Below are positions 40,408 to 63,763 of a stretch of 64,000 nucleotides of DNA, in pieces. The stretch is from an uncultured Actinomycetota bacterium (GTDB lineage Bacteria > Actinomycetota > Actinomycetes > Mycobacteriales > QHCD01). Location: positions 320,846-384,845 of the forward strand of contig CAVZJT010000007.1 in assembly GCA_963775655.1 (NCBI GenBank), written 5' to 3'. The notes below the pieces were generated by a model. The model was not told the DNA's origin and searched no databases. It saw only the letters and a list, made by a program, of their open reading frames with translations. The stretch's first letter is position 1; every line of letters starts with the position of its first letter. Made by a program: the position numbers and the translations under genes.

Positions 40408-42105
40408 ATGCCGCACGTCTTGGCTGCTACCACCCGCCTGGATGTCAACTCGCTCGACTACACGATCCTGGCGATCTACTTCGTGCTCGTCGTCACGATC
40501 GGGATCCTCGCGCGGCGGGCGATCGCCACCAGCGAGGACTTCTTCCTGTCCGGGCGTTCGCTGCCTGCGTGGGTGACCGGGCTCGCCTTCATCTCGGCCA
40601 ACCTCGGGGCGATCGAGATCCTCGGCATGGCGGCCAACGGTGGCCAGTACGGCTGGTCCACCGTGCACTTCTACTGGATCGGCGCCGTACCGGCGATGAT
40701 CTTCCTCGGCCTGGTCATGATGCCGTTCTACTACGGCTCCCGGGTGCACAGCGTGCCCGAATACCTGCGCCGCCGGTACAACATCCCGGCACACATCCTG
40801 AATGCATTGAGCTTCGCGCTCGCCCAGGTGCTCACCGCGGGCGTCAACCTCTACGCACTGGCGCTGGTCATCCAGAGCCTGCTCGGCTGGCCGATTCCGC
40901 TCGCGATCGTCGTCGCGGCGGCGTTCGTACTCGCCTACATCACCCTCGGCGGTCTGTCCGGTGCGATCTACAACGAGGTCATGCAGTTCTTCGTCATCAT
41001 CGCCGGACTGCTCCCGATCGTCATCGTCGGTCTCATCTCCGTCGGCGGGTGGAGCGGCCTGGAAGCCAAGATCAACAACGGCACGGCGCTGGCCGGCAGG
41101 GCTTTCAGCACGTGGAAGGGTACCGGAATCCCGTGGAGCAACCCGCTCGGTGACTGGATCGGCATCGTCTTCGGTCTCGGCTTCGTCCTCTCCTTCGGCT
41201 ACTGGACGACCAACTTCACCGAGGTGCAGCGTGCCCTGTCCGCCAAGGACCTCTCCGCCGCCCAGCGCACCCCGCTCATCGGCGCCTACCCGAAGATCTT
41301 CATCCCCTTCCTGACCATCATTCCCGGGCTGATCGCGCTGGTCGTGATCCCGCACTTCGGCACCGGCGCGAAGACCTACAACGATGCGATCCCCCTGTTA
41401 ATGGGCAAGTTCCTGCCCAACGGGGTACTCGGTATCGCGCTCACCGGCCTGCTGGCGGCGTTCATGGCGGGTATGGCCGCCAACGTGAGCTCCTTCAACA
41501 CCGTCTTCACCTACGACCTGTGGATGCCGTACATCAGACGGGGCCGGCCCGACCGCTACTACCTCAACGTCGGGCGCATCGTCACCGTGGTCGGCGTCGT
41601 GATCGGCATCGGTACGGCGTTCATCGCCTCCGGCTACAGCAACATCATGAATTACATCCAGTTGCTGTTCTCCTTCTTCAACGCGCCGTTGTTCGCGACG
41701 TTCATCATCGGCATGTTCTGGAAGCGCACGTCGATCGTGTCCGGCTTCTGGGGCCTGCTGTCCGGCACGATCGCGGCCGGCGTCATGCACTTCGTCGGCT
41801 ACAACATCAGCTACTTCTATCCCGGCGGCCACTACGACCCGTCTCACAAACTGGTCAATGCGCAGATGCTCAACTTCTACGGCGCGATCGCCGCGTTCGT
41901 CGTCGACGCGGTGGTCACCGTCGCGGTGACCCTGTTCACGCAGCCGAAGCCGGTCGAAGAGCTCGCCGGACTGGTCTACGGCGTACCCGATCCGAGTGCG
42001 CCCGATCCCCGGTTGGTCCCGAAGCCGGAATGGTGGCGTTCGCCGAAGCTCTTGGGCTTCACGGCGCTGGGCATCACACTGGCACTGTCGCTGATATTCG
42101 TCTGA
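40408..42105 (+). CDS. Sodium:solute symporter family (SSF) transporter
   Basis: About 565 aa and 13-14 TM helices, with ..FFLSGRSLP.W..G.AF.SANLGA.E..G... GTG 40396 is an alternative start. Confidence 0.8.
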   Translation: MPHVLAATTRLDVNSLDYTILAIYFVLVVTIGILARRAIATSEDFFLSGRSLPAWVTGLAFISANLGAIEILGMAANGGQYGWSTVHFYWIGAVPAMIFLGLVMMPFYYGSRVHSVPEYLRRRYNIPAHILNALSFALAQVLTAGVNLYALALVIQSLLGWPIPLAIVVAAAFVLAYITLGGLSGAIYNEVMQFFVIIAGLLPIVIVGLISVGGWSGLEAKINNGTALAGRAFSTWKGTGIPWSNPLGDWIGIVFGLGFVLSFGYWTTNFTEVQRALSAKDLSAAQRTPLIGAYPKIFIPFLTIIPGLIALVVIPHFGTGAKTYNDAIPLLMGKFLPNGVLGIALTGLLAAFMAGMAANVSSFNTVFTYDLWMPYIRRGRPDRYYLNVGRIVTVVGVVIGIGTAFIASGYSNIMNYIQLLFSFFNAPLFATFIIGMFWKRTSIVSGFWGLLSGTIAAGVMHFVGYNISYFYPGGHYDPSHKLVNAQMLNFYGAIAAFVVDAVVTVAVTLFTQPKPVEELAGLVYGVPDPSAPDPRLVPKPEWWRSPKLLGFTALGITLALSLIFV

Positions 42106-42124
42106 CCGAGGGGAGGAGGCACCG

Positions 42125-42427
42125 ATGCAGATCGACAGCCCGGAAGAGGAAAAGGCCAGCGCCTCAGCAAACCTGTTCGACCTTCGCTTGATCATCGGTG
42201 GGCTCTTCACCCTCTACGGCGTGATCCTCACCATTGTCGGGGCGCTGGACAGCCCGGCCGAGGTCGACAAGGCGGCGGGTGTCCGGATCAATCTCTGGAT
42301 GGGTCTCGGGATGCTCGTGCTCGGCCTGCTGTTCCTGCTGTGGGTGTTTCTGCGGCCGCTGCACGCCGAAACGTCCGACTCCACGCCACCGGCTCCGAGT
42401 GGAGCCGCGGCGCCCGAGCGCACGTGA
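42125..42427 (+). CDS. Small membrane protein downstream of the symporter
   Basis: 100 aa with two TM helices. GAGGGGAGGAGG lies upstream of the ATG. Confidence 0.45.
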   Translation: MQIDSPEEEKASASANLFDLRLIIGGLFTLYGVILTIVGALDSPAEVDKAAGVRINLWMGLGMLVLGLLFLLWVFLRPLHAETSDSTPPAPSGAAAPERT

Positions 42428-42460
42428 AAGTCTTCACAAGCTCTCGGTAGACTTCGGGTC

Positions 42461-44095
42461 GTGACCAATCCGCCCGCCGCCACAGCCAGCCAGACGGGGG
42501 CCGCCCGCGCCGTCGTCCTCGTCGCCGACCAGCTCGCCCCGGCCGCGCTCGACGTCCTCGCCAAGGACTTCGACGTCCGGCAGGTCGACGGGACCGACCG
42601 GCCCGCGCTGCTCGCCGCGATCCCCGACGCCGACGCCGTGCTGGTGCGCAGCGCGACCACCATCGACGCGGAGGTGCTGGCCGCGGGGAGTCGGCTGAAG
42701 GTCGTCGCCCGGGCCGGGATCGGCCTGGACAACGTCGATGTCGCGGCCGCCACCACCCGCGGCGTGATGGTCGTCAACGCGCCGACCTCCAACATCCTCA
42801 GCGCGGCCGAGCACGCGGTCGCCCTGCTGCTGGCGGTCGCCCGCCACGTGCCCGCCGCCGATGCCTCGCTCAAGGGCGGTGCCTGGAAGCGGTCGGCCTT
42901 CACCGGCGTCGAGGTTGCGGACAAGACGGTCGGCGTGGTCGGGCTGGGACGAATCGGCGTGCTCGTGGCCCAGCGGCTCGCCGCCTTCGGCACCCGGCTG
43001 ATCGCCTACGACCCCTACGTCCCGCCGGCCCGGGCCGCGCAGGTCGGCGTACAGCTCGTGTCTCTTCCGGAGCTGCTCGCCGAGAGCGACTTCATCACGA
43101 TCCACCTCCCCAAGTCGCCGGAGACGCTGGGCCTGATCGGTGCCGAGGAGCTCGCCGCCGCCAAGCCCGGCATCCGGATCATCAACGCCGCCCGCGGCGG
43201 CCTGGTCGACGAGCAGGCGCTGGCCGACGCGATCGCGTCCGGTCACGTCGCCGGGGCCGGGATCGACGTCTTCGCGACCGAGCCGACCACCGAGAGCCCG
43301 CTGTTCGGGCTGCCCGGAGTCGTCGTCACCCCGCACCTGGGGGCATCCACCCGTGAGGCGCAGGACAAGGCCGGGCTGGCCGTCGCCCGGTCGGTGAAGC
43401 TGGCGCTCGACGGCGAGTTCGTGGCCGACGCGGTCAACGTGCAGGCCGCCGGCGTCGTCGCGGAGGAGATCCGCCCGGCGCTGCCGCTGGTCGAGAAGCT
43501 GGGGCGGGTCTTCACCGCGATCGCCGGCGGGGTCGCCGCGAGCATCTCGGTCGAGATCCGCGGCGAAATCACCTCCTACGACGTCGGCGTGCTGCAACTG
43601 GCCGCGCTCAAGGGCGTCTTCGCCGACGTCGTCGAGGAGCAGGTGACCTTCGTCAACGCGCCGATCCTGGCCAAGGACCGCGGCGTCGACGTAGGCCTCG
43701 CCACCTACGCCGAGAGCGAGGACTACCGCAACCTGGTGACCGTGCGCGGCGTACTCCCCACGGGCGAGCAGGTCAGCGTGTCCGGCACCCTCACCGGCCC
43801 CAAGCAGGTCGAGAAGCTGACCGAGATCAACGGCTTCGACGTCGACCTGCCGCCGGAGGACCACATGCTCTTCTTCCGCTACCACGACCGGCCCGGCGTG
43901 GTCGGCATGGTCGGCGTACAGCTCGGTGAGGCCGGCGTCAACATCGCCGGCGCGCAGGTCAGCCGGAGCCGGCGCGGGGGCGAGGCCCTGATGTCACTCA
44001 CGGTCGACTCCGCCGTGTCCGCCGACCTGCTGGCCGACATCGCCCGGGCGATCGGGGCCGAGGACGCGCGTAGCGCCGACCTTGACGGCGAGTGA
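42461..44095 (+). CDS. serA: D-3-phosphoglycerate dehydrogenase (long form with ASB/ACT domains)
   Basis: Contains ..GIGLDNVD..GLGRIG..NAARGG..TPHLGAST.EAQ.. and a C-terminal ACT domain. Confidence 0.9.
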   Translation: MTNPPAATASQTGAARAVVLVADQLAPAALDVLAKDFDVRQVDGTDRPALLAAIPDADAVLVRSATTIDAEVLAAGSRLKVVARAGIGLDNVDVAAATTRGVMVVNAPTSNILSAAEHAVALLLAVARHVPAADASLKGGAWKRSAFTGVEVADKTVGVVGLGRIGVLVAQRLAAFGTRLIAYDPYVPPARAAQVGVQLVSLPELLAESDFITIHLPKSPETLGLIGAEELAAAKPGIRIINAARGGLVDEQALADAIASGHVAGAGIDVFATEPTTESPLFGLPGVVVTPHLGASTREAQDKAGLAVARSVKLALDGEFVADAVNVQAAGVVAEEIRPALPLVEKLGRVFTAIAGGVAASISVEIRGEITSYDVGVLQLAALKGVFADVVEEQVTFVNAPILAKDRGVDVGLATYAESEDYRNLVTVRGVLPTGEQVSVSGTLTGPKQVEKLTEINGFDVDLPPEDHMLFFRYHDRPGVVGMVGVQLGEAGVNIAGAQVSRSRRGGEALMSLTVDSAVSADLLADIARAIGAEDARSADLDGE

Positions 44096-44134
44096 CCTCT
44101 AGCGCGGATTCGACGGAACGGTAGCCTCCCAGCC

Positions 44135-45163
44135 ATGAAACTCGCGGTGATCCCGGGCGACGGTGTCGGCCCGGAAGTGGTCGCGGAGGGCCTGAAGGTC
44201 CTGCGCGAAGCAGTGCCCGACGTCGAGACGACGCGCTACGACCTCGGCGCCGCCCGGTGGCAGCGCACCGGGGAGTTGCTGCCCGACTCCGTGCTCGGGG
44301 AGTTGCGGGCGCACGACGCCATCCTGCTCGGCGCCGTAGGCGATCCCGCCGTACCCAGCGGGATCCTCGAGCGCGGGCTGCTGCTGCGGCTGCGTTTCGA
44401 ACTCGATCACCACGTCAACCTGCGCCCGGTGCGGCTCTTCCCCGGCGTGACGTCGTCACTGGCCGGCTCGCCGGAGATCGACATGGTCGTCGTCCGTGAG
44501 GGCACCGAGGGCCCCTACGCCGGCACCGGCGGGGTCCTGCGCAAGGACACGCCGCACGAGATCGCGACCGAGGTCAGCCTCAACACGGCGTACGGCGTGC
44601 ACCGGGTGGTCCGCGACGCGTTCCAGCGGGCGGCAGGCCGGCCCAGGAAGCATCTGACCCTGGTGCACAAGACCAACGTGCTCGTCAACGCCGGTTCCCT
44701 GTGGGCGCGGGCGGTCGAGGAGATCGGCGGCGACTATCCCGAGGTGACCGTCGCCTACCAGCATGTCGACGCCGCGTCGATGTACTTCGTCACCGACCCG
44801 TCCCGGTTCGACGTGGTCGTCACCGACAACCTCTTCGGCGACATCCTCACCGACCTCGGCGCCGCGATCACCGGCGGCATCGGGCTCGCCGCGAGCGGCA
44901 ACCTCGACGTCAGCGGAGCCAACCCGAGCATGTTCGAGCCGGTGCACGGCAGCGCCCCGGACATCGCCGGCACCGGGGTGGCCGACCCGACCGCCACGGT
45001 GCTGTCGGTCGCCCTCATGCTCGACCACCTCGGGCACGGCGACCAGGCCCGGCGGATCGAGGCCGGGGTCGCCTTCGACCTCGCCACCCGCGACCATTCC
45101 GCGCTCGGTCGTACTGTGGAGATCGGGGACCGGCTCGCGGCGCTGGCCAGCAAGACGGGATAG
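44135..45163 (+). CDS. leuB: 3-isopropylmalate dehydrogenase
   Basis: Contains ..[34 protein letters not shown].. Confidence 0.9.
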
Positions 45164-45249
45164 CTTCCGCGACCGCCCACCCCTCGCTCTGGTCGGCCGT
45201 AACGTGTGATGCAATCGTCGCGAATCGGTCGTGTGTCAAAGGAGTCGTT

Positions 45250-46176
45250 GTGCCCATCACGCCCACCTCGAAGATCTGGATGAACGGCACGCTCGTCGAC
45301 TGGGACGACGCGACGATCCACGTCCTGAACCCGACCATGCACTACGGATGGGGCGTCTTCGAAGGTATCCGGGCATACGCGACAGACAAGGGTCCGGCCG
45401 TCTTCCGGCTCACCGACCACATCGCCCGGCTGTTCCGGTCCGGGCGGATCTACCTGTTGGAGCCGGAGTTCACCCCGGAGCAGCTCGTCGCCGCGACCAA
45501 GGAGACGGTGCGGGTCAACGACGTGGAGGCGTGCTACATCCGGCCGATCTTCTACCTCGGCTACGGCGAGATGGGCCTCAACCCGCTGCCCAGCAAGACC
45601 GAGGTGTCGATCGCGGTCTGGCCGTGGGGCTCGTATCTGGGTGAAGAGGCCAAGCAGACCGGCTGCCGGGCGGCCACCTCGAGCTGGCAGCACATCAACC
45701 AGAACTCGATCCCGCCCACGGGCAAGGGCACCGGGCAGTACATGAACTCGTCCCTGGCCAAGGTGCAGGCACTCAAGGCCGGCTACGACGAGGCGATCCT
45801 GCTCAACCCGGCCGGGCACGTCGTGCAGGGCACCGGCGAGAACATCTTCATCGTCTCCGACCGCACCCTGATCACCCCGCCGACCAGCGACGGGCTGCTG
45901 CAGGGGATCACCCGCGAGTCGGTGATGACGATCGCCCGCGACCAGGGTTACGACGTGGTCGAGCGCAGCCTGGTGCGCACCGACCTCTACCAGGCCGACG
46001 AGGCATTCTTCACCGGGACCGCCGCCGAACTGGTGCCCATCGCCGAGGTCGACGATCGGCCGGTCGGCCCCGGCAAGGTCGGCCCGATCACCCGCGAGAT
46101 CGCCGAGATCTTCAGCGCCGCCACCGTCGGCGAGGTCGACCTCTACAAGTCGTGGAACGAGTACGTCCGCGACTGA
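45250..46176 (+). CDS. ilvE: Branched-chain amino acid aminotransferase (class IV)
   Basis: GTG follows AAAGGAG. Contains ..IWMNG.LV.W..A..HV......YG..VFEG.R.Y... Confidence 0.85.
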   Translation: MPITPTSKIWMNGTLVDWDDATIHVLNPTMHYGWGVFEGIRAYATDKGPAVFRLTDHIARLFRSGRIYLLEPEFTPEQLVAATKETVRVNDVEACYIRPIFYLGYGEMGLNPLPSKTEVSIAVWPWGSYLGEEAKQTGCRAATSSWQHINQNSIPPTGKGTGQYMNSSLAKVQALKAGYDEAILLNPAGHVVQGTGENIFIVSDRTLITPPTSDGLLQGITRESVMTIARDQGYDVVERSLVRTDLYQADEAFFTGTAAELVPIAEVDDRPVGPGKVGPITREIAEIFSAATVGEVDLYKSWNEYVRD

Positions 46177-46220
46177 TCGTTCTGCCCTACCGCGGTTTCC
46201 CGCCGGTCGGCAGCGGCGGG

Positions 46221-46281
46221 CGACATTGTGCGCCGTACTCGCATTAACGGCACCGGGATGCGAGTAGCGCGCACGATGATG
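46221..46281 (+). repeat. 61-nt hairpin repeat, family 1, copy 2
   Basis: CGACATTGTGCGCCGTACTCGCA - 15 nt - TGCGAGTAGCGCGCACGATGATG. Confidence 0.85.
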
Positions 46282-46323
46282 CCGACTGGCCCCCGCCTAT
46301 GGCTGCCGGTTGGCAGCGGCGGC

Positions 46324-46384
46324 CGACATCGTGCGCCGTACTCGCGTAAATGCCGCCGGGATGCGAGTAGCGCGCACGATGATG
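46324..46384 (+). repeat. 61-nt hairpin repeat, family 1, copy 3
   Basis: Same arms as copy 2 but a different loop. It is part of a 103-bp tandem duplication that includes GGCAGCGGCGG upstream. Confidence 0.85.
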
Positions 46385-46406
46385 CGCGCGGGCCGCGCCG
46401 ACGTAT

Positions 46407-46467
46407 CGACATCGGACGCTGTACTCGCATTTCGAGGCTGATTCTGCGAGTAGAGCGTCCGATGATG
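46407..46467 (+). repeat. 61-nt hairpin repeat, family 1, copy 4 (alternative stem allele)
   Basis: CGACATCGGACGCTGTACTCGCA - 15 nt - TGCGAGTAGAGCGTCCGATGATG. The stem changes are compensatory. Confidence 0.85.
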
Positions 46468-46513
46468 CCCGCGGATCGGCGGCCGGCAACCGGGCCCACG
46501 CCGGGAAAGCGCC

Positions 46514-46574
46514 CCACCGGGTGCCGATATCTCGCAGACTGGTGTCGATACGGCGAGATGCCGTCCGTCGGTAC
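46514..46574 (+). repeat. Decayed family-1 copy
   Basis: ..GCCGATATCTCGCA - exactly 15 nt - GGCGAGATGCC... keeps the geometry, but many stem mismatches are present. Confidence 0.45.
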
Positions 46575-46620
46575 TAGTGAGAGGCCCGGCACGCGGGCCG
46601 CGGAGTAAGGGGACAGCGCT

Positions 46621-46968
46621 ATGGCGGAGTACCTGATCCTGATCTACGGCGACGAGCAGGTGTGGAGCCAGGCCACCGAGGCCGAGTTGGAACAGCTCAT
46701 GAAGGAGCACATGGCCTTCGGTGAGAAGCACCACGACGTCCTGCGCGGTGGCAATGCCCTGAAGTCCACGCAGACCGCGACATCGATCCGCAAGGACGGC
46801 TCGGGCCCGGCAGCGGTGACCGACGGGGCGTTCGCCGAGACGAAGGAAGCCCTGGGCGGTTACTACGTCGTCGAGGCCGCGAACCTCGACCAGGCGCTGG
46901 CGATCGCGAAGGACGTTCCGGCCGATCACGGCGGCGTCGAGGTCCGCCCGATCCAGGTCTTCGACTGA
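46621..46968 (+). CDS. YciI family protein
   Basis: Contains MAEYLILIYGDE.......GGYYVVEA..LD.A...A...P, typical of the YCII/DGPF domain. Confidence 0.8.
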   Translation: MAEYLILIYGDEQVWSQATEAELEQLMKEHMAFGEKHHDVLRGGNALKSTQTATSIRKDGSGPAAVTDGAFAETKEALGGYYVVEAANLDQALAIAKDVPADHGGVEVRPIQVFD

Positions 46969-46985
46969 CCGGCACCGTTCTGCCT

Positions 46986-48243
46986 GTGGATCCGGGGGTC
47001 GCGGCTGCGGTCGCGGACGCGCACCGTCGCGAGTGGGCATTCGTGCTCGCGGCGACGGTGCGCGTGACCCGGGATCTTGACCTGGCCGAGGAATGCGTGC
47101 AGGACGCCTACGCCCAGGCCCTGGTGACGTGGGGCGACCGGGGGATACCGGACAACTACGGGGGTTGGCTCACCACCGTCGCCCGGCGCAAGGCGCTGGA
47201 TCTCCTCCGCCGCGACGCGACGCTCCGACGCACCCTTCCGCTGCTGCTCGACGATCAGGTGGAGGCCGGCCCGGACGACGCCGCCTCGACCGAGCACGAG
47301 ATCGTCGACGACCGGCTGCGGCTGGTCTTCACCTGCTGTCACCCGGCGATCGCCCAGGAGGCGCAGGTCGCGCTGACCCTGCGCCTGCTCTGCGGACTGA
47401 CCACCGCGGAGGTCGCCCGTGCCTTCCTGGTCGGTACGCCGACCATGGCCGCCCGGCTCACCCGGGCCAAGAAGAAGATCGCGGCGGCCCGCATCCCCTA
47501 CCGGGTGCCGCCCGCCGAGGAACTGCCGGCCCGCATCGACTCGGTTCTCACCGTCGTACATCTGCTCTTTTCCACCGGCCACACCGCGCCCGCGGGCGCC
47601 GACCTGATCCGCCGCGACCTGGTCGAGCGCGCGCTCGACCTCGCGCGGATGCTCCGGACGCTGCTGCCCGCCGACCCCGACGTGGCCGGCCTGCTGGCGC
47701 TGATCCTGCTCACCGACGCGCGCCGCGCCGCCCGCATCGGCGATGACGGCCGCATGCTGCTGCTGGCCGAGCAGGATCGCACCCGCTGGGACCGGGGCGC
47801 GATCACCGAGGGCGTCGGCAATGGTGCGCGAAGCGCTCCGGAGCCGGCCACCCGGGCGGTTCGCGCTGATGGCCGCGATCGCCGCCGTGCATTCCGAGGC
47901 GCCCAGCTGGCCGGACACCGACTGGCGCGAGGTGGTGGCGCTCTACGACCTGCTGGTCGCGCTCTGGCCGTCCCCGGTCGTCGCGCTCAACCGGGCCGCC
48001 GCCGTCGGGCTCGCCGACGGACCCGCGGCCGGTCTCGCCGCGCTGGACGCACTCGCCAACGAGCCGCAACTCGCCGGCTACAGCTACCTCGCCGCGGCAC
48101 GGGCGGACTTCCTGCGCCGGCTCGACCGCCCCGGGGAGGCGAAAGAGGCCTACGAGGAGGCTCTGCTGCTGACCGAGAACGCCGTCGAACGGGAGTTCCT
48201 CACCGCGCGGGTCGACGAGCTCGACCGCAGCCGGCCCGATTAA
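46986..48243 (+). pseudogene. ECF-type sigma factor with long C-terminal extension (YciI-associated class), frame broken once (about 47812-47822)
   Basis: Region 2/4 motifs (..EECVQDAY..WLTTVARRKALDLLRR..LTTAEVARAF..TMAARLTRAKKKI) run up to ..DRGAITEGVG. The sequence continues in the next frame as MVREALRSRPPGRFALMAAIAAVH... The break behaves as one extra base. Confidence 0.7.
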
Positions 48244-48281
48244 CTGAGGTGACCGCCAGGACGGACATCCGCGACACTACG

Positions 48282-48954
48282 ATGATGATCTCGCAGCACT
48301 GGCCGCTCTTCGATCTCCGGCTCCGCACGCCCCGGCTGGAGTTGTGCGTGCCGTCGCTCGAGCAGCTGGGTGACGCTGGCGGACCTCGCCGTCGACGGCA
48401 TCCATGATCCGGGGTTCATGCCGTTCCTGCAGCCGTGGACCGACCAGCCGCCGCAGGAGCGCGCCCGGGGCACGCTGCAGTACCACTGGGGGCAGTGGGC
48501 CGCGTTGGTCTCCGGAGCGGTGGAGCCTCGAACTCGTCGTCGTTGCGGGACGGGTCGGTCGTCGGCACCCAGAGCGTGGGCGGCAACGAACTTCGCCGTG
48601 CTCCGCGAGGTCGGCACCGGCTCGTGGCTCGGCCGGAAGTTCCAAGGTGAGGGGATCGGCACCGAGATGCGGGCCGCCGTGCTGCACCTGGCCTTCGCCG
48701 GGCTCGGCGCGCAGTGGGCCTACTCCGGCGCGTTCGCCGACAACGCCGCGTCGCTCGGCGTCTCCCGCAAGCTCGGCTACGTCGAGAACGGGTACTCGCG
48801 TCAGGTACGGCGCGGCGAGCCCGCCGACGAGGTCGGGTTCCGGATGAGTCGCGCCGACTGGGAGAGCCACCGCCGTACGCCGGTGGAGATCGACGGGCTC
48901 GAACCGTGCCTGCCGATGTTCGGTCTCGACGGGGCCGAGGAGACGGCGCGGTAG
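48282..48954 (+). pseudogene. GNAT (RimJ/RimL-like) N-acetyltransferase with four frame breaks
   Basis: The conserved peptide can be followed through frames 0,1,2,0,1. The segments are MMISQHWPLFDLRLRTPRLEL.. / TLADLAVDG..YHWGQWAA / SPERWSLELVVV / RDGSVVGTQSVGGNE / [26 protein letters not shown]... The breaks lie near 48368, 48500, 48542 and 48589. Confidence 0.6.
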
Positions 48955-55302: not shown

Positions 55303-55374
55303 CCGGCAGCATTGGGGTATGGGGTAATTGGCAGCCCGACTGGTTCTGGTCCAGTTAGTCTAGGTTCGAGTCCT
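55303..55374 (+). tRNA. tRNA-Gln (CTG)
   Basis: A manual cloverleaf was built. The acceptor pairs TGGGGTA with TACCCCA. The anticodon stem is ACTGG/CCAGT with loop TTCTGGT. The T-arm is CTAGG-TTCGAGT-CCTGG. No CCA is encoded. Confidence 0.9.
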
Positions 55375-55396
55375 GGTACCCCAGCGCCGTTCACTG

Positions 55397-55469
55397 CATC
55401 ACCTAGGGCCCCGTCGTCTAGCGGCCTAGGACACCGCCCTCTCAAGGCGGCGGCGCCGGTTCGAATCCG
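55397..55469 (+). tRNA. tRNA-Glu (CTC)
   Basis: The acceptor pairs GGCCCCG with CGGGGCT. The anticodon stem is CCGCC/GGCGG with loop CTCTCAA. The T-arm is GCCGG-TTCGAAT-CCGGT. Confidence 0.9.
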
Positions 55470-55679
55470 GTCGGGGCTACCCTGCACGACCGCCCGTGTT
55501 TCCCAGCCGAGTCCCGGCGGGACGCGGGCATTTTCCGTATCCGGGGCCGGTTCGGCTCTCCCGGCCGCCGAGATCGTCCCGTAGTGCCGTTTTGCCCCAA
55601 AGGGCAGAACGGTCACCTAGCCTTACACTATGTCATCAACTAAATACTCAGCGTCACCAAACTCCGTCTGCGCGAGGCG

Positions 55680-56852
55680 GTGACCGCCCACCGGCGCGTC
55701 CTCGTGGTCGCGGTGGCGGCGATGATCGCCGGACTCGTTGCGGCGCTCTTCAGCATCACCTCGGCATCGGCGTCGACCGGCGCCGGCTCCGCACCACGCC
55801 CGACGGCGCCGTACGTGCCGGGAACCGACGGGCACCTCCCGAACCACCCCGGTGGCATCACCCCGAACCAGGCCGGTGACCCGACCGGTGCCCACTTCGG
55901 CCAGTACGACCCGAGCGCATGGGGATGGGCGTGGGCCAACGGAGCGATCCCGTTCTCCTACGCGGGTCACTCCTTCCCGCAGGGCGTCGCCAACGCCGAC
56001 ATCGCCACCATCGATACGAAGATCCTGAGCATCATCGTGCCGCGCATGCGCGAGCGGCTGTGCTACCAGGGCGACTGCTGGGGCTATGAGGCCCGCAACA
56101 TCGCCGGCTCGTCATCGCACTCCTTCCACGGCTACGGTCTCGCCCTCGACGTGAACGCTGCGACCAACGGACAGACCACGGCACCCATGTCCACCAGCAC
56201 GACCACCCTGCCGCTGAACACCGGCGCCCTGATCCGGCCCTACGGCGCGGAATGGGGCGGCGACTGGTCATCGAATTCGCCGCGCGACCCGATGCACATC
56301 GAGATCCACCTCTCACCTGCCGGCGCGGCCGGCGTGGCGGCGAGGATCCGGGTCGGCAGCCCGCTCAAGGGCCCGGCGTATGCGCACTTCGGTTCGACGG
56401 TGACCCTGACCGGCGTGGCGCCGGCGAACACGAACCTGAAGGTCTGGCTGCATCGGCGTGGCCCGGCCGGCTACACCGCCCACACCGTCGCGGTCAACAG
56501 CTTCGGGGTGTGGACCCTGCGCTACCTCGCCGCCGATGACTACCGATACCACGTCACGACCTCCGGCCACCTGCACGAGGGTCTGACCCAGATCGACACC
56601 ACCCTCAGCGGACCCGCGCACGCCGCGCGCAACTCGACGGTGACCTTCGGCGGCCACGGCCGGCCGTCGACCACCCTGACGGTGTGGTTCCACAAGGCCG
56701 ACACCAACGGCTACACCGCCCGGCGCACCATCACCGTGACCGGCAACGGCGTGTGGCGCACCACGTACGTCGCCAACGCCGACTACCGCTACTACGCCGT
56801 CGACAACATCACGGGTCGGGCGTCCAGCTTCGGGCTGACCCAGGTCGGCTGA
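55680..56852 (+). CDS. Secreted M15-family (VanY / D-Ala-D-Ala carboxypeptidase-like) metallopeptidase with two C-terminal ~70-aa repeat domains
   Basis: The signal peptide ends in ASA. Zinc ligand pattern SHSFHGYGLALD...DPMHIE. Tandem repeats occur at GPAYAHFGSTVTLTG..DDYRYHV and GPAHAARNSTVTFGG..ADYRYYA. Confidence 0.65.
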   Translation: MTAHRRVLVVAVAAMIAGLVAALFSITSASASTGAGSAPRPTAPYVPGTDGHLPNHPGGITPNQAGDPTGAHFGQYDPSAWGWAWANGAIPFSYAGHSFPQGVANADIATIDTKILSIIVPRMRERLCYQGDCWGYEARNIAGSSSHSFHGYGLALDVNAATNGQTTAPMSTSTTTLPLNTGALIRPYGAEWGGDWSSNSPRDPMHIEIHLSPAGAAGVAARIRVGSPLKGPAYAHFGSTVTLTGVAPANTNLKVWLHRRGPAGYTAHTVAVNSFGVWTLRYLAADDYRYHVTTSGHLHEGLTQIDTTLSGPAHAARNSTVTFGGHGRPSTTLTVWFHKADTNGYTARRTITVTGNGVWRTTYVANADYRYYAVDNITGRASSFGLTQVG

Positions 56853-56862
56853 CGCACCCCGG

Positions 56863-57595
56863 TCACCGCACGATGCGGCCGCGGCGCAGGGCAAGCACGC
56901 CGGCAGCGACACCGAGCACGGCGATCACCAACGCGATGATCGACAGCGTGAGCGCCGTACCGGAGCCGGAGGCCGCCGGCGCCGAGGACGACCACGTGGG
57001 ACTCGCCTCCGGCGGTGCCCGTCTCGGGCGTCGCTCCCGCCGGGCTGAGTGTCAATGTGGGCGCGGGGTGCTCGGGTTCGGGTGCACCCGGTGCCGCGAC
57101 CTGGATCCACCGCACGACGGTGCCGTTGCTGTAGGTCTGTAGCGCAGGGAACCGGAGCGACGTCGTCTTGGGCAGCGGCTCGGCGGAGATCGAGAACTCG
57201 CCGAACTCGCCGGGCTTGATGGCACTCGCCGCGGAGTCGGCCTTCCACGCGATCTGGGTCACCGCAGTGGTGACCGGTCCGTCGTCGGTCTGGATCGGCT
57301 TGGCCAACTTCGCCGTCGTCACCCGGAAGGACCATCCCGGCTGCGGCTGCACCGCCACGCTGGCGATCGGGGTGGCCCGCGGGAGGGCGACGCGCAGCGC
57401 GGTCGTCGAGGCGTTGTCCACCTCCGTCGGTACCCGGAAGGTGATCTTGGCGGACCCGCCCTGGGTCGGGGTGTCCGCATTCACCGTGACATGCGCGAAG
57501 GCGGGTACGGCGGCGACCACCACCAAGGTCAGTGCGGCGAGAGCGACCAGCCCGAGCCGGGTGAGCGAGCGGGCGGGTTTGCGATGTGCGGCCAT
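56863..57595 (-). pseudogene. YcnI-like (DUF1775) copper-binding protein, frame broken once (about 56965-57005)
   Basis: Signal peptide ..PAFA followed by HVTV.. (N-terminal His). The body is conserved up to ..TGTAGGES. The expected C-terminal anchor SGSGTALTLSIIALVIAVLGVAAGVLALRRGRIVR* is in the next frame. The break behaves as one extra base. Confidence 0.7.
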
Positions 57596-57630
57596 GAGCC
57601 CTTCCTTCGGAAGCCTGTCCTGGATCGGTG

Positions 57631-59415
57631 TCACTGCACGGGAATGGCGACGCGGAAGGTGGTCGCATCGAATGCGGAGGTCTGCACGCTGACATCGAGG
57701 TCCCATCGGCCGGACACGGCGAAACTCGTCATGGCCATCGCCTGCCCGGCGGCGGTGCGGGTGAAGTGCACCGGCACGGGACCGACGTGGTGTGCCGGAA
57801 GGGACAACGCACCGGTGACCTGCTGAATGGGTTGCCGCCGACCGGATGGCGTGTCGGCGCGTAGCTGGATCATCGCCATACCGGTGCGCGCCGGATCGAC
57901 CGTCACCTGCAAGCGGGTCGACGTTGCGGCGACGGTGGTCTGGAAGTGCGGTGCATAGGTCTCCTTCGCCTGTGCGGTGTTGACCAGGACCGTGCTCACC
58001 ACCAGCACCGCCAGGCCGATCACGACCTCGCCGACCAGGCCGCGGCGCAGCCCCGCCAGCCGGATGCGTGCCGGGTCCGCGTGCCGCGTCGTCGGGGGCG
58101 GGTCGACGACCGGCGGCACCGGACCGTCGGCGTGCGCGACGAGGCGCGGGGCGAACCACCGCACGGAGTTGGTGTCGAGGTAGTGCCGGTGCACCCAGCG
58201 CCGGGCCAGGTTTCCGAGTCCGATCAGGACGAGGAAGCCGCCCATCTTCGCCAGCAGCAGCCGGCCGTAGACGGTGTCGACCAGAGCCGGCCAGGACCCG
58301 ACCTCACGCCAGGACTGGAAGACGCCGGTCGCCGCGATCAGGATCACGGCGGTGAACGCCAACCGCGAGTAGCGGGGGAGGACGACGGCCAGGTCGGCGG
58401 CCCGCGACCGGACGGCGAGGCAGTCCACGAGGAGCGCCAACCCGCCTATCCAGACGGCGACCGCGGCCAGATGTACGACGTCGCTGGTCAGCGTCAACCC
58501 GCTCAGCGTGTCGTCGGCGGCGTGCCCGGAGACCGCGAAGGTCACCAGGATGGCCACCGAGACGGCGAGCCCGGCGCCGAGCAGCCACCGCGGTGGTTGC
58601 CGCTGCGCCGGGCGGGCCGCGACACCGGCGGTCACCGGACGCCGGGAGAAGGCGAGCGCCAGCAGCGCCGCGAGCATCAGCAGCAAGGTGATCCGGGCCA
58701 TCGACGCCGTCCCGAACCGGGTCTCGATCGTGGTCGACAACAGCCCGGAATCGAACAGCCGTCCGAGCCCGGCACCGGCTCCGTAGGGACCCTGCAGGAG
58801 CAGCCCACCAGCCGTACCCGCGACCAGCAGGCCCCATCCGGTCCACACCAGGACCCGGGCCCGACGCACCCGCCGGCCCGCCGGCCACAACGCGAACAGC
58901 ACCACCGCGCTGCCGAGGCCGAGCACGATCCCGACGAATCCGGCCAGCCGCGTCGCGCCCAGCAGTACGCCGACGGTGGTGCTCCCGCCGCCACTGCTCC
59001 GCGCCGTACCGGCGACGGCGCTGGGATGTCCGACCGAGAAGGTGAAGCCGCCGGAGACGGGGTGCGAATCGGCCGAGATGACTCGCCAGGTGACGGTGTA
59101 GGTGCCGGGACGCAATGCCGGCCGGAGCGAGACGCCGACCGAGTCGGCGCGGCCGTCGGGATGATCGACCGCACCGTGATCGACCCGGCGCAGCCGGTCG
59201 TCGTACACCCGTACGGCGCCGGGCGGGACGATCACCGGCTCGCCGAAGCGGAGCGCGACCGCCTGCGGTGCGGTGCGGACGACCGAGCCGTCGGACGGGG
59301 TGGTGCTCTCCAGTACCGCGTGCGCGCCGGCCGGGCGGCTGACCGCGCCCACGGCGATCGCGCTACCGGCACCGACCAGCAGCAGCGCCGCGGCGGCCCG
59401 CCCGCGGAGCCGGCG
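57631..59415 (-). CDS. CopC-CopD fusion protein (YcnJ-like copper transport/resistance protein); the 5' boundary is unresolved because the ORF continues upstream to 59781
   Basis: The signal-like segment RRLRGRAAAALLLVGAGSAIAVGAVSRPAGA is followed by HAVLESTTPSDGSVV..YTVTWRVISADSHPVSG (CopC). Then come about 8 TM helices (CopD) and a C-terminal soluble domain. There is no ATG/GTG/TTG immediately upstream of the signal segment. The nearest in-frame GTG/TTG codons lie about 27 codons upstream, inside the anti-sigma TM4 region (CVLLW). Confidence 0.7.
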   Translation of the reverse strand, partial: RRLRGRAAAALLLVGAGSAIAVGAVSRPAGAHAVLESTTPSDGSVVRTAPQAVALRFGEPVIVPPGAVRVYDDRLRRVDHGAVDHPDGRADSVGVSLRPALRPGTYTVTWRVISADSHPVSGGFTFSVGHPSAVAGTARSSGGGSTTVGVLLGATRLAGFVGIVLGLGSAVVLFALWPAGRRVRRARVLVWTGWGLLVAGTAGGLLLQGPYGAGAGLGRLFDSGLLSTTIETRFGTASMARITLLLMLAALLALAFSRRPVTAGVAARPAQRQPPRWLLGAGLAVSVAILVTFAVSGHAADDTLSGLTLTSDVVHLAAVAVWIGGLALLVDCLAVRSRAADLAVVLPRYSRLAFTAVILIAATGVFQSWREVGSWPALVDTVYGRLLLAKMGGFLVLIGLGNLARRWVHRHYLDTNSVRWFAPRLVAHADGPVPPVVDPPPTTRHADPARIRLAGLRRGLVGEVVIGLAVLVVSTVLVNTAQAKETYAPHFQTTVAATSTRLQVTVDPARTGMAMIQLRADTPSGRRQPIQQVTGALSLPAHHVGPVPVHFTRTAAGQAMAMTSFAVSGRWDLDVSVQTSAFDATTFRVAIPVQ

Positions 59416-60052
59416 GGGCGACGCCGTCGTCGGATTCCGCTTGCGCCGGACGGGAGCGGAACCGTGGCCGGACTCGCCACGGGCGATCAGCCACAGCAAC
59501 ACGCACCCCGCCACCGCGAGCAGATGCGGCGCCTCCTCGCTCACCTGGGTGCGCCCGGCGGCGAGATCGATCCCGGCGGTGGCGACCAGCGCGACGGCGG
59601 CGACACCCACGAGCGGCGCCATCCCGGCCGCGCGGGCGGGACGGAAGACCGCGACGAGGAAGCCGACCGCCAACGCGAGGTCGAACGACCCGAGCTCGTG
59701 CGCCACGTGCATCGGCGTCGAGTGGTCGTGGCCGAAAACGAGCACCGGGATCGTGACCGCGAGCTGCGCCGCCGCGACCACCGCCAGGCCGATCCGGGCC
59801 AGCCGCCGACGGCGCGACCGGACCGGGTCGTCGGCGGTGAGAACAGCGGCCGCGATGTCCTCGGCGCGGTCGGGTACGTCGGGCGTCGCGAGCGAGGCGG
59901 GCCCGCCGGGTCACCGCGACCGCGGCCGATCGCCATTCCCGGCAGGCGACGCACGTCTCGAGGTGCCCGCGCAGGTCGCGCAGCGGCACCGCTGGGTCCG
60001 CACCGTCCAGCTGCGCCGAGGTCGCCTCGCGCGCCTTCTCACACGTCAGCAC
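59416..60052 (-). pseudogene. zf-HC2 anti-sigma factor with multi-TM C-terminal region. The frame is broken once (about 59885-59892) and no stop separates it from CopC-CopD.
   Basis: The N-terminus from ATG 60052 (MLTCEKAREATSAQLDG..LRGHLETCVACREW) carries the H-x3-C-x2-C motif. After the break it continues as TPDVPDRAEDIAAAVL..RLARIGLAVVAAAQLAVTIPVLVFGHDHS..HELGSFDLALAVGF... Confidence 0.5.
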
Positions 60053-60153
60053 ATGCAGATAGTCGTCCGACGGCGTCGTGCGGTTCCCACCGACCGGCGG
60101 GTGGGTGGGGGTGCCTCCCGCCGTTGCGCCGCGCTCCGCTTACGGTGGCTCCC

Positions 60154-60756
60154 GTGGATCCGCTGACCGTGGTGCTGTCAGCGGCTGGCCGTGGGGATCA
60201 CCAGGCGCTCGTATCGTTCATCCGGGACACCCAGGCAGATGTGTGGCGTTTCGCCGCGCACCTCGTGGACCCGCAGAGCGCCGACGATCTCACCCAGGAG
60301 ACCTACCTGCGCGCCGTACGTGCGGCGCCGTCCTTCGAGGGTCGCTCGTCCGCGCGCACCTGGCTGCTGGCGATCGCGCACCGCGTCTGCATGGACGAAC
60401 TGCGCGCGCGGACCCGGCGCCGGCGCCGCGACGCCCTGCTGCCGTGGGTCGGTCCTCCCCGGGTCGAACCCGACGTCGCGGGCGAGGTCACCGCGACCGC
60501 GCTCCTCGCTGATCTCGACCTCGACCGGCGTACCGCCTTCGTGCTCACCCAGCTGATCGGGCTGTCCTACGAGCAGGCGGCGCAGGCGTGCGGCTGCCCG
60601 GTGGGCACCATCCGGTCCCGCGTCGCGCGGGCGCGGGCCGACCTGGTGCAGGCGCTGGACGCCGACCATGTCGTCACCCTGCGTCCGGTCCGGTCCCGTC
60701 GGTCGACGCCGGACCGGCCCGTAGCTCCACGCAACACGCTCCGGGCCGAGGGTTGA
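60154..60756 (+). CDS. sigC: ECF sigma factor, SigC-like
   Basis: Contains ..VWRFAAHLVDPQSADDLTQETYLRA..RSSARTWLLAIAHRV.. and ..CGCPVGTIRSRVARARADL. To my recollection this closely parallels M. tuberculosis SigC. The start is ambiguous (TTG 60124, GTG 60145 or GTG 60154). Confidence 0.7.
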   Translation: MDPLTVVLSAAGRGDHQALVSFIRDTQADVWRFAAHLVDPQSADDLTQETYLRAVRAAPSFEGRSSARTWLLAIAHRVCMDELRARTRRRRRDALLPWVGPPRVEPDVAGEVTATALLADLDLDRRTAFVLTQLIGLSYEQAAQACGCPVGTIRSRVARARADLVQALDADHVVTLRPVRSRRSTPDRPVAPRNTLRAEG

Positions 60757-61424
60757 GGATGGCCTGCACGGTCTGGGCGTGCAACCCGCCGAGAAAGCCG
60801 GCTCAGGAAGGCGTGGTTGATGCCGCAGACGACCTGCGGCGCCTGCGCCGCCAGCGGGTGGAACGGGCAGTTCCGTAACCGCACACACAGCGGTTCGTCG
60901 CGGGTCGGGTCGAAGCCGCGCTCCCGGAGTACGCGCTCGGCAAGGGTGAGGGCGCGTTCGGCGCCGAGCCGGCCGGCGCGGCTGCGGTGCCGCTCCTCGG
61001 CGCCCAGGGTCTCGCCGTGGCTGCGCGCCACCTGCATCGCGGACTGCATCGCGCTCCCGCCGGCGGGCTCGGCGACGAGCGCGTCGACCAGGATGTCGGA
61101 CAGGTCCTCGTGCCGGCGGGCCGGAATGCTCACCCGGACGTCGAGGTCGGTCGGCCGGTAGGTCTTCGGGGTGCGCCCGACCCGGCCGGGTCGCTCCGGC
61201 TCGTCGTACGCGGCCCGGAGCAGGCCCACGTCGACGAGCTTGTCCAGATGGAATGCGGCCAGCTTGCGGGAGATCCCCACGGCGCTCGCCGCGTCCTCCC
61301 GGGTGACGGGTCGGCCGGCATCGCGGATGTAGGTGAACATGCCGCGCCGCAGGTCGTCGTCGAGTGCCGCGACCGCCCGGATCGACGCTCTCGAATCCGG
61401 TCCGGATCCGGCGTACCCGATCAA
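60674..61424 (-). pseudogene. Winged-helix (ArsR-like) transcriptional regulator with C-terminal NCPFH..C..CC domain, frame broken once (about 60798-60803)
   Basis: The sequence ..RRGMFTYIRDAGRPVTREDAASAVGISRKLAAFHLDKLVDVGLL.. runs up to ..VCGINHAFLS. The conserved end GFLGGLHAQTVQAILNPRPGACCVELRAG..* is in the next frame. The break behaves as one extra base. Confidence 0.55.
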
Positions 61425-61529
61425 CCATCACCGACCCAGGTTACGCCTATCTCGATGTGCGAAACCCTTCAACGAGCAGTATTCCTCTTCCACTTGACCG
61501 GGCCGCCGGAATATGACCAAGATAATTGG

Positions 61530-62145: not shown

Positions 62146-62164
62146 GCGACGCCGGCGATGACCG

Positions 62165-63151: not shown

Positions 63152-63225
63152 GTTGGCAGTATATACGCGGAGGCTGTCAGTTCTGCCACTTCTGCAGTCA
63201 CGTCGAGCCGCGCATGCTCAGTGGC

Positions 63226-63594: not shown

Positions 63595-63617
63595 GCTGTC
63601 TCTCCTTTGCGCCGATC

Positions 63618-63641
63618 GGCGCCCGCCTTCGGGTGGGCGCC
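63618..63641 (+). terminator. GC-rich hairpin with a TTCG tetraloop 24 nt after the stop
   Basis: GGCGCCCGCC-TTCG-GGTGGGCGCC forms 10 bp with one G-U pair. No U-tract. Confidence 0.35.
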
Positions 63642-63671
63642 GATAGACGTGTCGTGGGCGAGCCGCGCGGG

Positions 63672-63732: not shown

Positions 63733-63763
63733 GGTGGGCATCCTGTCCGCCCCGGGCGCGGCG

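Follow-up and report, generated by a model that had tools for sequence, protein, structure and literature searches.

A family of 61-bp intergenic palindromic repeats in soil actinobacteria that resembles REP and REPIN elements and whose largest arrays in related genomes adjoin DUF222-HNH genes

Extragenic palindromic repeats have been well studied in proteobacteria. In enterobacteria, BIMEs form composite arrays after genes, in which two types of unit (Y and Z) alternate and also change orientation from one unit to the next, and the linkers between the units are defined sequence motifs. BIMEs are reported to bind proteins at the DNA level (PMC2817692). REPs that carry a GTAG or CGTC tag are 20-40 bp long, have the unpaired tag at one end and often occur as inverted dimers; they are palindromic and extragenic, are located mainly between unidirectional or convergent ORFs downstream of coding regions, and some of their families have no dedicated transposase (Di Nocera et al. 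2013, PMC3733652). REPINs are hairpin-forming units with inverted arms and a less conserved spacer; they are strictly extragenic and exist mostly as single units, and additionally as tandem clusters in which the flank is duplicated (Bertels & Rainey 2011, PMC3116915; Nunvar et al. 2010, PMC2817692). In REPIN systems two repeat types alternate, and the largest clusters adjoin a nuclease gene, the Y1 (HUH) RAYT. We found no description of a comparable actinobacterial family in the literature searched on REP, actinobacteria and Micromonosporaceae, and searching literature text with the arm sequences of the repeat described here returned unrelated primers only. REP-type elements are the nearest known kind to this repeat.

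The window, the whole stretch of 64,000 nucleotides that was analysed, carries six copies of a 61-bp palindromic repeat. All six good copies that the initial annotation had picked out on the plus strand were recovered with unchanged boundaries; they scored 65-82 bits with covariance model R1, whereas the next best match in the window scored 18 bits. The left-arm pattern gave 8 matches in the window compared to 0.00 expected by chance, and the inner-stem pattern 12 matches compared to 0.09 expected. Three of the copies are located between ilvE (stop at 46176) and yciI (start at 46621). The first, at 46221-46281 (74.9 bits), is of type A, with a GTGC/GCAC stem and the ends CGAC...GATG, and its RNA fold has an energy of -41.4 kcal/mol (z -6.2). 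It is a tandem duplicate of the second, also of type A, at 46324-46384 (65.2 bits): the 90-nt unit 46202-46291 is 87% identical to 46305-46394, a tandem duplication of 103 bp that includes the flank. The third, at 46407-46467 (76.0 bits), is of type B, with a GGAC/GTCC stem, and has a T-A pair in place of the C.C/C-G pair adjoining the G.G mismatch; the C-to-T change matched by a G-to-A change that had been pointed out in this copy is present. Judging from its sequence, copy 46324 is probably orthologous to the single copy found at this site in CAWHER01 (locus L040, 5804-5864), with 39 of the 46 arm positions in agreement and the loops reading taaatgccgccggga in the window and taaatcggcttggga in L040. 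The ilvE-yciI site thus holds three copies in the window compared to one in L040.

Outside this spacer, a solo type A copy is located at 18511-18571 (plus strand, 69.2 bits), in the interval between a CbiX-family gene and ligA. The remaining two copies, both on the plus strand, form a cluster to which the nearest confidently called gene is a minus-strand AraC-type gene (62165-63151). Its type B copy at 63672-63732 (67.6 bits) belongs to a subtype with ...CGTCCTACGTCG in the right arm and is orthologous, by synteny and by 44 of 46 arm positions, to a copy at L016 7916-7976 in a Rugosimonospora sp. MAG. The type A copy at 63764-63824 (82.4 bits) starts 92 nt after the start of the B copy; its arms equal the family consensus, with 0 mismatches to the left-arm pattern.

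A fourth, decayed copy at 46514-46574 had been proposed, and the ilvE-yciI spacer had been described as built almost entirely of hairpins. Since the three copies account for 183 of its 444 nt, the spacer is not almost entirely hairpins. The stretch at 46514-46574 (plus strand) scored 12.4 bits with R1 (E 0.39), which is at noise level, and lacks the fold of the family hairpin; membership was rejected on the covariance score, the fold and the orthologous sequence alike. It is the best-conserved part of the spacer in comparison to L040, being nearly identical while the remaining spacer has diverged. This promoter-like stretch contains TGTCGA (46543-46548) and CGTC (46566-46569), and the genes downstream are yciI (YCII) followed by an ECF sigma factor gene with DUF6596. 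These motifs may be those of an ECF42-type promoter.

The family extends beyond the window copies from which it had first been recognized. Our catalogue from the window and three related MAGs comprises 45 intergenic clusters with a total of 76 copies. The window contributes 6 of them, CAWHER01 44, CAWINQ01 25 and the Rugosimonospora MAG 1; the window is about 91.5% identical to this last MAG. Three more copies were found in a fourth MAG, GCA_036497565.1. The sample covers about 5% of the related genomes, with loci picked by the exact pattern, and therefore the copy counts, the orientation statistics and the absence of Y1 genes reported here are provisional. REP families are marked by a high copy number, more than 100 per genome; for the repeat the sampled loci give at least 44 copies in CAWHER01 (21 loci) and at least 25 in CAWINQ01. 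The exact pattern had no matches in viral contigs or in JGI metagenome contigs. With Rfam, the window matched two tRNAs only and the repeat matched no family at the gathering score, and over 46150-46650 nothing exceeded 18 bits at E values up to 1. By sequence, the family appears to be confined to a small group of soil actinobacteria.

The wider set bears out that the family is real, structured and strictly intergenic, with a fixed geometry and a conserved mismatch in the stem. The loop had been given as always exactly 15 nt, which applies to 72 of the 76 copies (23-15-23 geometry); three have a loop of 14 nt and one of 16 nt. The G.G mismatch common to the six good window copies, between arm position 15 and right-arm position 9, was found in 70 of 72 copies. 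The arms are conserved at about 90-100% per position, and the inner stem, GTACTCGCA/TGCGAGTAG, shows practically no variation, its inner 9 bp being conserved at about 100% over 72 copies. This does not agree with the earlier suggestion that structure and not sequence is maintained. The loops, described before as unrelated, are distinct in sequence in 67 of 72 copies but share a weak consensus, TnTnGGGsCCGrwTr, with the central positions at G61/72, G52/72, C52/72 and C52/72. Between orthologous copies the identity was 88% in the arms, 70% in the loops and 55% in the 30-nt flanks. The unit ends are CGAC/CATC and GTCG/GATG, and a GTAG is found at right-arm positions 6-9, 14 nt from the end, with only its last G unpaired. 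The stem does not extend into the flanks (2.09 of 6 pairs observed, 2.40 in permuted flanks). No target-site duplication was detected, flank identity at k = 2-9 not being above that of permuted flanks, and no related transposase gene was seen; a MITE was rejected on these grounds.

The paired change of TG/CA to GA/TC across both arms, which the initial annotation had read as covariation, was present in 14 copies, together with other double changes. It separates two subfamilies, A and B, and does not represent many independent compensatory events. Within arrays, A and B neighbours alternate in 24 pairs and do not in 6 (p 1.6e-5), whereas solo copies are 22 of type A and 3 of type B. The multi-copy clusters are all direct, with the units sharing one orientation, and the one apparent exception, in L019, is a symmetric copy. 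Measured from the start of one unit to the start of the next, the distances group at about 72, 82, 93, 103, 113 bp and beyond, quantised in steps of about 10.5-10.9 bp. For all 34 spacings, some of which come from paralogous arrays, the Rayleigh R was 0.65 at 10.9 bp, and for the 18 spacings without DUF222 linkage it was 0.79 at 10.4 bp; with both sets, 0 of 3000 null sets reached the observed R. Spacers within one length class are unrelated in sequence. The arrays thus resemble BIMEs in being composite, in having alternating subtypes and in lying after genes, whereas they run in one direction throughout and their spacers, unlike BIME linkers, are constrained in length class alone. There are paralogous arrays in L017, L026 and L059. 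Signs of turnover were also observed: in one orthologous copy both arms have gone from A to B with the loop retained, one copy has been homogenised to its neighbour, and solo right-arm remnants are present.

All 45 clusters are intergenic, as had been noticed for the window, at a median of 57 nt past the facing stop codon; 21 lie between tandem, 13 between convergent and 5 between divergent genes. This placement is among the reasons to consider a role at the RNA level, with the repeats as transcribed 3'-UTR hairpins that serve as factor-independent or factor-assisted terminators or as barriers to 3'-exonucleases, and with selection acting on pairing. The four window copies tested, on the plus strand, fold at -33 to -42 kcal/mol with z scores of -3.2 to -6.2, the stem changes are paired, and in the L040 orthologue an A-T pair has become G-C. 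The compensatory changes, both A/B and that in L040, and the placement after stop codons are equally expected of a selected RNA hairpin. In 8 of the 9 informative tandem clusters the end variant with a G.U pair, CGAC...GATG, is on the sense strand of the mRNA, an asymmetry that does follow transcription. Other features of the repeat do not fit an RNA role. None of the 76 copies has a run of at least 4 T within 12 nt on either strand, and no terminator-like sites were found in 46100-46700; the RNA polymerase of mycobacteria, the studied actinobacterial case, was found in experiments to require a U-tract (PMC3993855). An intrinsic (rho-independent) terminator was accordingly rejected, the hairpin being there and the U-tract not, and the orientation relative to genes being random.

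The orientation of the units argues in the same direction. They had been described as all in the same orientation and downstream of plus-strand genes, and an RNA role had been considered along with this; the shared orientation is a chance property of the three window clusters, since among tandem-context clusters the G.G strand ran with the upstream gene 10 times and against it 11 times. RNA folding was better in the sense direction in 7 clusters and in the antisense direction in 14 (p 0.86), so that the sense strand folds no better, and G.U mismatches on the sense strand were not clearly enriched over A.C mismatches (25 against 19). Five clusters sit between divergent genes, the near-invariance of the arms goes beyond what pairing alone would call for, and the helical-turn phasing of the units has no RNA rationale. 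The hairpin-only ('I-shaped') terminators proposed for actinobacteria are similar in being stable GC-rich hairpins shortly past stop codons without a U-tract. These terminators are not known to have a sequence in common, whereas the arms of the repeat are nearly invariant and its orientation is random to transcription. Altogether we consider selection for an RNA function unlikely. When transcribed, a unit would fold as a very stable hairpin in either orientation and may incidentally stall exonucleases or RNA polymerase, which would leave the conserved features unexplained.

On balance, and with moderate confidence, we favour the reading that these are lineage-restricted extragenic palindromic repeats, REP/REPIN-like with an architecture of their own, which are recognised by a protein and maintained at the DNA level. 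The strand asymmetry that is blind to transcription, the helical-repeat spacing and the alternation of A and B in direct arrays are three uncommon properties, and together they speak for a protein that reads the repeat at the DNA level. Each unit, in which a 15-bp spacer separates two inverted arms of 23 bp, would be recognised by a sequence-specific protein, and the conserved features would be those of the DNA and not of a transcript. Propagation would include local tandem duplication of unit and flank, gene conversion between copies would contribute, and occasionally a copy would reach a new 3' intergenic site. Units would in this way accumulate in direct arrays in which A and B alternate and neighbours are spaced in helical-turn steps.

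Part of this evidence would also suit arrays of domesticated duplex binding sites, to which a chromosomal protein (nucleoid-associated, a topoisomerase or a regulator) binds cooperatively on one face of the helix. Such binding has been proposed for BIMEs with IHF and gyrase. The spacing in helical steps between spacers of unrelated sequence, the 15-bp distance between half-sites held despite a varied loop, the arm sequence kept across species and an orientation irrelevant to transcription are all in line with this, and it overlaps with the reading that we favour. However, there is no candidate protein for it, the G.G mismatch is meaningless in duplex DNA, where the half-sites simply differ by one base, and the turnover in copy number and the truncated remnants have more in common with selfish DNA than with sites that are maintained. 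As a separate explanation we regard it as decidedly unlikely.

A further alternative, put forward in the initial annotation, is a classical REP or REPIN whose mobility depends on a Y1 (HUH) transposase, be it a RAYT or an IS200/IS605 TnpA, that would recognise the bulged hairpin in single-stranded DNA. The repeat agrees with this in being an imperfect palindrome whose mismatch keeps one position, in the GTAG tetranucleotide with the last G unpaired and in the REPIN-like build, where conserved inverted arms enclose a spacer of lower conservation and tandem clusters take in the flank, as well as in its extragenic location with a 3' bias. In contrast to tagged REPs, the unit is 61 bp instead of 20-40 bp, the GTAG is within the stem and is not a terminal tag, and neighbours are direct instead of in opposite orientation as in REP dimers and BIMEs; in contrast to REPINs, the arms are not small palindromes, the loop is fixed at 15 nt, the units are phased by helical turns and the host is an actinobacterium, a group that goes unmentioned in the REP survey of Di Nocera et al. 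(2013, PMC3733652). The orientation showed no link to proxies of replication, agreeing with GC skew in 24 of 45 clusters and with the majority gene strand in 26 of 45, and none to the position along the contigs. A weak tblastn search with IS608 TnpA and the E. coli RAYT as approximate queries gave nothing at E<1 in the window and 39 loci. Neither a Y1 transposase (PF01797) among the 25 Pfam families listed for 83 flanking genes nor any transposase among the 25 PHROG families listed for them was seen, and no RAYT was found beside the 45 clusters in this weak search of about 5% of the related genomes. A Y1-driven origin is improbable in our view.

The gene that does adjoin the repeats in the related genomes, unlike in REPINs, encodes a DUF222-HNH endonuclease. 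The largest arrays adjoin DUF222-HNH genes (L017, L051, L059, L026/L067 and L038); the gene calls, here and above, were made with a GC3-based caller. Every DUF222-HNH gene examined in the hairpin-carrying genomes had an array within about 110 nt, and three such genes that were fetched by protein homology alone (L068, L069 and L070) had arrays within about 100 nt. There is no DUF222 gene in the window, and homologues with 41-53% identity (L071-L075) had no long hairpins nearby. As the linked genes belong to only two paralogue groups, the link may reflect as few as 2-3 independent events. REPINs were first tied to RAYTs by the same positional argument, and by this argument DUF222-HNH is a candidate partner, the protein that would read the repeat.

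A more specific proposal, which we put forward only tentatively and consider doubtful, is that the adjoining DUF222-HNH (REP13E12-type) endonucleases have these hairpins as their cognate DNA. In this scheme the asymmetric palindrome, perhaps in the form of an extruded cruciform or hairpin, would be recognised and nicked by the nuclease. With another array as the template for repair, the arms would become homogenised, units would be added in helical register, and the nuclease gene would be taken to further hairpin sites. Such a system would parallel the RAYT-REPIN partnership with an HNH enzyme as its driver, and it would give the 13E12 family, long an enigma, its first functional handle. The adjacency bears both on the maintenance of the repeat and on the function of 13E12/DUF222 genes. 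Should the link to DUF222 fail, the repeat would be an ordinary lineage-specific family with unexplained phasing.

The linked genes share with the mycobacterial REP13E12/DUF222-HNH genes the DUF222 and HNH domains, multiple copies within a genome and location at a synteny break, whereas we found no hairpin arrays described for the mycobacterial family. In M. tuberculosis the 13E12 genes are reported to be SOS-induced and to mark inversion breakpoints (PMC13157036). The DUF222 protein had no sequence match in the PDB. Its structural model had a mean pLDDT of 73, with a confident N-terminal helical domain, and in comparison to PDB structures the HNH part alone gave weak matches, to McrA, TagI and the Gme HNH nicking endonuclease.

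Based on a covariance model built from 57 family members, we found that the six 61-nt hairpins claimed in the initial annotation (starts at 18511, 46221, 46324, 46407, 63672 and 63764, all on the + strand) reached 65-82 bits when read on the + strand and 49-66 bits on the opposite one, with the rest of the window at or below 18 bits. The left-arm pattern gave 8 matches in the window compared to 0.00 expected from shuffles. The imperfect palindromes at 46221, 46324 and 46407 lie in the 444-nt spacer between the stop codon of ilvE (Aminotran_4 domain; 46176) and the start of yciI (YCII domain; 46621). A decayed fourth copy had been placed at 46514-46574, but this stretch scored 12.4 bits (E 0.39, about 60th among the noise matches) and folds differently, and score, fold and orthologue comparison rule it out as a family member. 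As only three copies are members, the hairpins occupy 183 of the 444 nt, and the spacer is not built almost entirely from them as had been described. The copies at 46221 and 46324 arose as a tandem duplication of 103 bp, in which about 19 nt of the upstream flank were duplicated as well (90 nt aligned at 87% identity).

The stretch at 46514-46579 is the best-conserved part of this spacer. It has hardly changed in the orthologous locus L040, from the related metagenome-assembled genome (MAG) CAWHER01 and syntenic with window 40441-48625 (84-89% identity), and the remainder of the spacer has diverged. It sits just upstream of the YCII gene and a gene for an ECF sigma factor extended by DUF6596, and contains TGTCGA (46543-46548) and CGTC (46566-46569), which resemble the ECF42-type target or promoter motif. 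We read the stretch as a promoter or operator, probably the autoregulated promoter of the yciI-ECF operon.

The pattern GYACTCGCR-N15-TGCRAGTAG was scanned against 185,579 species-representative genomes and gave 66 loci, of which 39 belong to the hairpin family. These were found in two long-read MAGs of uncultured Actinomycetota (CAWHER01 and CAWINQ01) and in one Rugosimonospora sp. MAG, whose locus (L016) is 91.5% identical to window 55774-63756 across 8 kb. The remaining loci were rejected as single chance matches with unrelated outer arms. From the similarity to L016 and L040, the window derives from a Rugosimonospora-like member of the Micromonosporaceae that is absent from the scanned collection. 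Copies of the family are present in a fourth MAG, GCA_036497565.1, as well. The pattern had no match in viral contigs and JGI metagenome contigs, no described RNA family in Rfam matched the hairpins, and no description was found in the literature searched. Two neighboring tRNA genes (55313-55384 and 55407-55479, + strand) were the sole Rfam matches in the window. Together, the window and the three related MAGs gave 76 copies in 45 clusters. The loci read cover about 5% of the related genomes, and their selection with an exact 33-nt pattern biases the sample to well-conserved copies with a 15-nt loop. Neighboring copies recovered with looser criteria had the same geometry. Genes were called with our own GC3-based caller.

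The loop, previously stated to be always exactly 15 nt, has this length in 72 of the 76 copies; of the other four, three have a loop of 14 nt and one a loop of 16 nt. Essentially no variation is seen in the inner stem GTACTCGCA/TGCGAGTAG. Left-arm position 15 is G in 70/72 copies and the opposite base is G in 72/72; the G.G mismatch is therefore a fixed feature, and its constancy among the window copies holds across the wider family. Whether the two flanking positions pair or mismatch differs from copy to copy. Although 67 of 72 loops are distinct, they are not unrelated as first thought, since the 72 copies have the consensus TnTnGGGsCCGrwTr in common, with a centre that is 70-85% conserved. 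Two stem types were distinguished, type A (GTGC/GCAC, n=53) and type B (GGAC/GTCC, n=21), which the alignment shows as 40 U-A and 14 G-C at the first of the differing pairs and 41 G-C and 14 A-U at the next. Both arms do change together, as had been observed, but the pattern reflects two subfamilies and not many independent compensatory events. Adjacent units of an array alternated between the types in 24 pairs and did not in 6 (expected alternation 41%, p 1.6e-5), and solo copies were of type A in 22 cases and type B in 3. The ends vary too: the left one is CGAC or CATC, the right one GTCG or GATG, and these variants combine freely. No stem extension into the flanks was found, and the hairpin folds stably from either strand.

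All 45 clusters are intergenic, which extends the earlier observation on the window copies to every cluster; the two flags 'inside gene' in locus L059 come from an over-long ORF call running through the array. The context was tandem for 21 clusters, convergent for 13 and divergent for 5, with a median of 57 nt from the facing stop codon, similar to the placement reported for REPs (PMC3733652). Orientation was defined by the strand carrying the G.G mismatch. In tandem contexts this strand agreed with the upstream gene in 10 clusters and opposed it in 11, so that the uniform + orientation of the window copies does not carry over to the wider family. Orientation matched the local GC skew in 24/45 clusters and the majority gene strand in 26/45, and was mixed along large contigs, with the units of one array sharing one orientation. 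In the window, the 520 nt (63152-63671) between an AraC-type gene (62165-63151, - strand) and the 63672 cluster are occupied only by weak + strand ORFs (63214-63594 and 63287-63646) without Pfam match. This cluster is therefore possibly not downstream of a + strand gene, and may lie in a divergent or orphan region.

A role of the hairpins at the RNA level would agree with their placement after stop codons, with the paired stem changes and with the CGAC...GATG end variant, which was on the mRNA-sense strand in 8/9 informative tandem clusters (L003, L041, L051, L053, two in L059, L065 and window 46221-46467; the exception is L010 3134-3274), even though the G.G strand is random relative to transcription. 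The sense RNA fold was not more stable than the antisense one (7 clusters vs 14, p 0.86), and G.U mismatches on the sense strand were not clearly favored over A.C (25 vs 19). We consider the RNA-level reading unlikely.

The distances between units fell into start-to-start classes of ~72, 80-83, 90-95, 101-105, 112-117, 127, 137 and 145 nt, with spacers of 12, 19-22, 28-34, 40-47, 51-56, 66, 76 and 84 nt (window 46221-46467 and 63672-63824; loci between L002 and L070). The Rayleigh peak was at 10.9 bp (R 0.65, n=34 spacings), and this R was equalled by 0/3000 uniform and 0/3000 jittered (+/-5 nt) null sets, each maximised over periods of 5-25 bp. When arrays linked to DUF222-HNH genes were left out, R was 0.79 at 10.4 bp (n=18; p ~1e-5 for an a-priori 10.5 bp). 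Spacers of equal length class are unrelated in sequence, and shared descent therefore does not explain the classes. The one-turn steps and the fixed 15-bp half-site gap point to a constraint on duplex DNA geometry. The conserved features, namely the sequence of the arms, a strand asymmetry that does not follow transcription, the half-site distance and the helical phasing, fit better with DNA recognised by a sequence-specific protein than with an RNA structure.

Comparison of orthologous sites showed differences in copy number: three copies at the ilvE-yciI site in the window vs one in CAWHER01 (the common copy recognised by its loop), two in L007 vs one and a right-arm remnant in L034, and one with a remnant in L006 vs two with a remnant in L030. 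In the orthologous copy of L006 and L030, 12/15 loop positions are kept while the arms are type A in one genome and type B in the other, meaning four substitutions coordinated across both arms. The second copy of L021 has acquired the loop of the first, whereas its L046 orthologue belongs to type B and has another loop; this indicates local gene conversion. Across six orthologous pairs, identity was 88% in arms, 70% in loops and 55% in 30-nt flanks; the arms are thus far better conserved than the DNA around them, through either selection or homogenisation. Solo right-arm remnants (e.g. GCGACGTAGGACGCACGATGTCG) and a recurrent CGACGTAT motif adjoin intact copies (L006 ~1640-1700 on the - strand, L030 ~6470-6500, L034 ~6000-6030, window 46399-46406) and look like truncated units. 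Within the 76-nt spacer between two hairpins at L026 588-663 (- strand), a 16-nt unit, CTCGCCGTTCGGTCGT, is repeated three times in tandem.

The dynamics of the element are REP/REPIN-like: units are duplicated in tandem together with their flanks, copies convert one another, truncated remnants occur and the species differ in copy number. The hairpins depart from classical REPs in several defining respects, as the size is wrong, the terminal GTAG/CGTC tag is lacking and the units are not inverted pairs. A MITE was rejected as no target-site duplication was found in the flanks of the copies, and an intrinsic terminator for want of a U-tract, with no T-run within 12 nt on either strand of any copy. 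Given these dynamics and the failed tests, we file the family with the extragenic palindromes. In a weak tblastn search with IS608 TnpA and E. coli RAYT as queries, no gene for a RAYT (Y1 transposase) was found in the window and 39 loci.

The 83 flanking genes were ordinary housekeeping genes, with DUF222 as the sole recurrent family among the matches listed. These neighbors encode proteins of 430-475 aa that combine a DUF222 domain with an HNH domain whose motifs are intact, a type known in mycobacteria as the REP13E12 family (PMC13157036). In a first group (L017 483-1910, L051 2492-3850, L059 3839-5190, the IS-disrupted L067/L026 copy with L067 4001-5104, and L070 1-1049 from the fourth genome; 73-100% identical to the L017 protein), an array of 3-5 oppositely oriented units lies 10-35 nt past the stop codon of the gene. 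In a second group (L038 5516-6838, L068 4001-5317 and L069 4001-5296; ~60% identical to the L017 protein), the array has 1-4 units and lies upstream, ending 20-110 nt before the gene. Viewed by G.G orientation, the gene is always 3' of its array.

Each of the multi-copy DUF222-HNH genes listed lies within ~110 nt of a hairpin array. Protein similarity was the only criterion for retrieving L068, L069 and L070, which were therefore not selected for hairpins, and since hairpin clusters occupy ~1% of intergenic regions, chance is a very unlikely cause of the adjacency. As few as two or three founding events may lie behind it, however, since the arrays belong to the duplicated units. The largest REPIN clusters lie beside RAYT genes, which first tied the two together, and the arrays beside DUF222-HNH genes are the same kind of observation. 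No hairpins were found near DUF222 genes of 41-53% identity in other genomes, and no DUF222 gene was found in the window. That the nuclease is the partner enzyme of the hairpins is in our judgment a doubtful proposal. The structure model of the DUF222-HNH protein has a confidently predicted all-helical N-terminal domain without PDB counterpart, and its HNH part shows a weak resemblance to nicking or restriction HNH nucleases of the McrA, TagI and Gme types.

In CAWHER01 (contig 1, ~591.8-592.5 kb), two short ORFs with rve (integrase/transposase) domains, L067 5826-6478, interrupt the DUF222 gene. On either side of them lie the N-terminal part of the gene (367 aa) and a C-terminal remnant of 49 aa (L026 328-474), and a five-unit hairpin array follows. 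L051 and L059, one from each of the two MAGs, share synteny (92% identity) on the downstream side of the DUF222 gene and array and are unrelated upstream, which places a rearrangement breakpoint at the left edge of the DUF222 unit and recalls the inversions reported for 13E12 in M. tuberculosis (PMC13157036).
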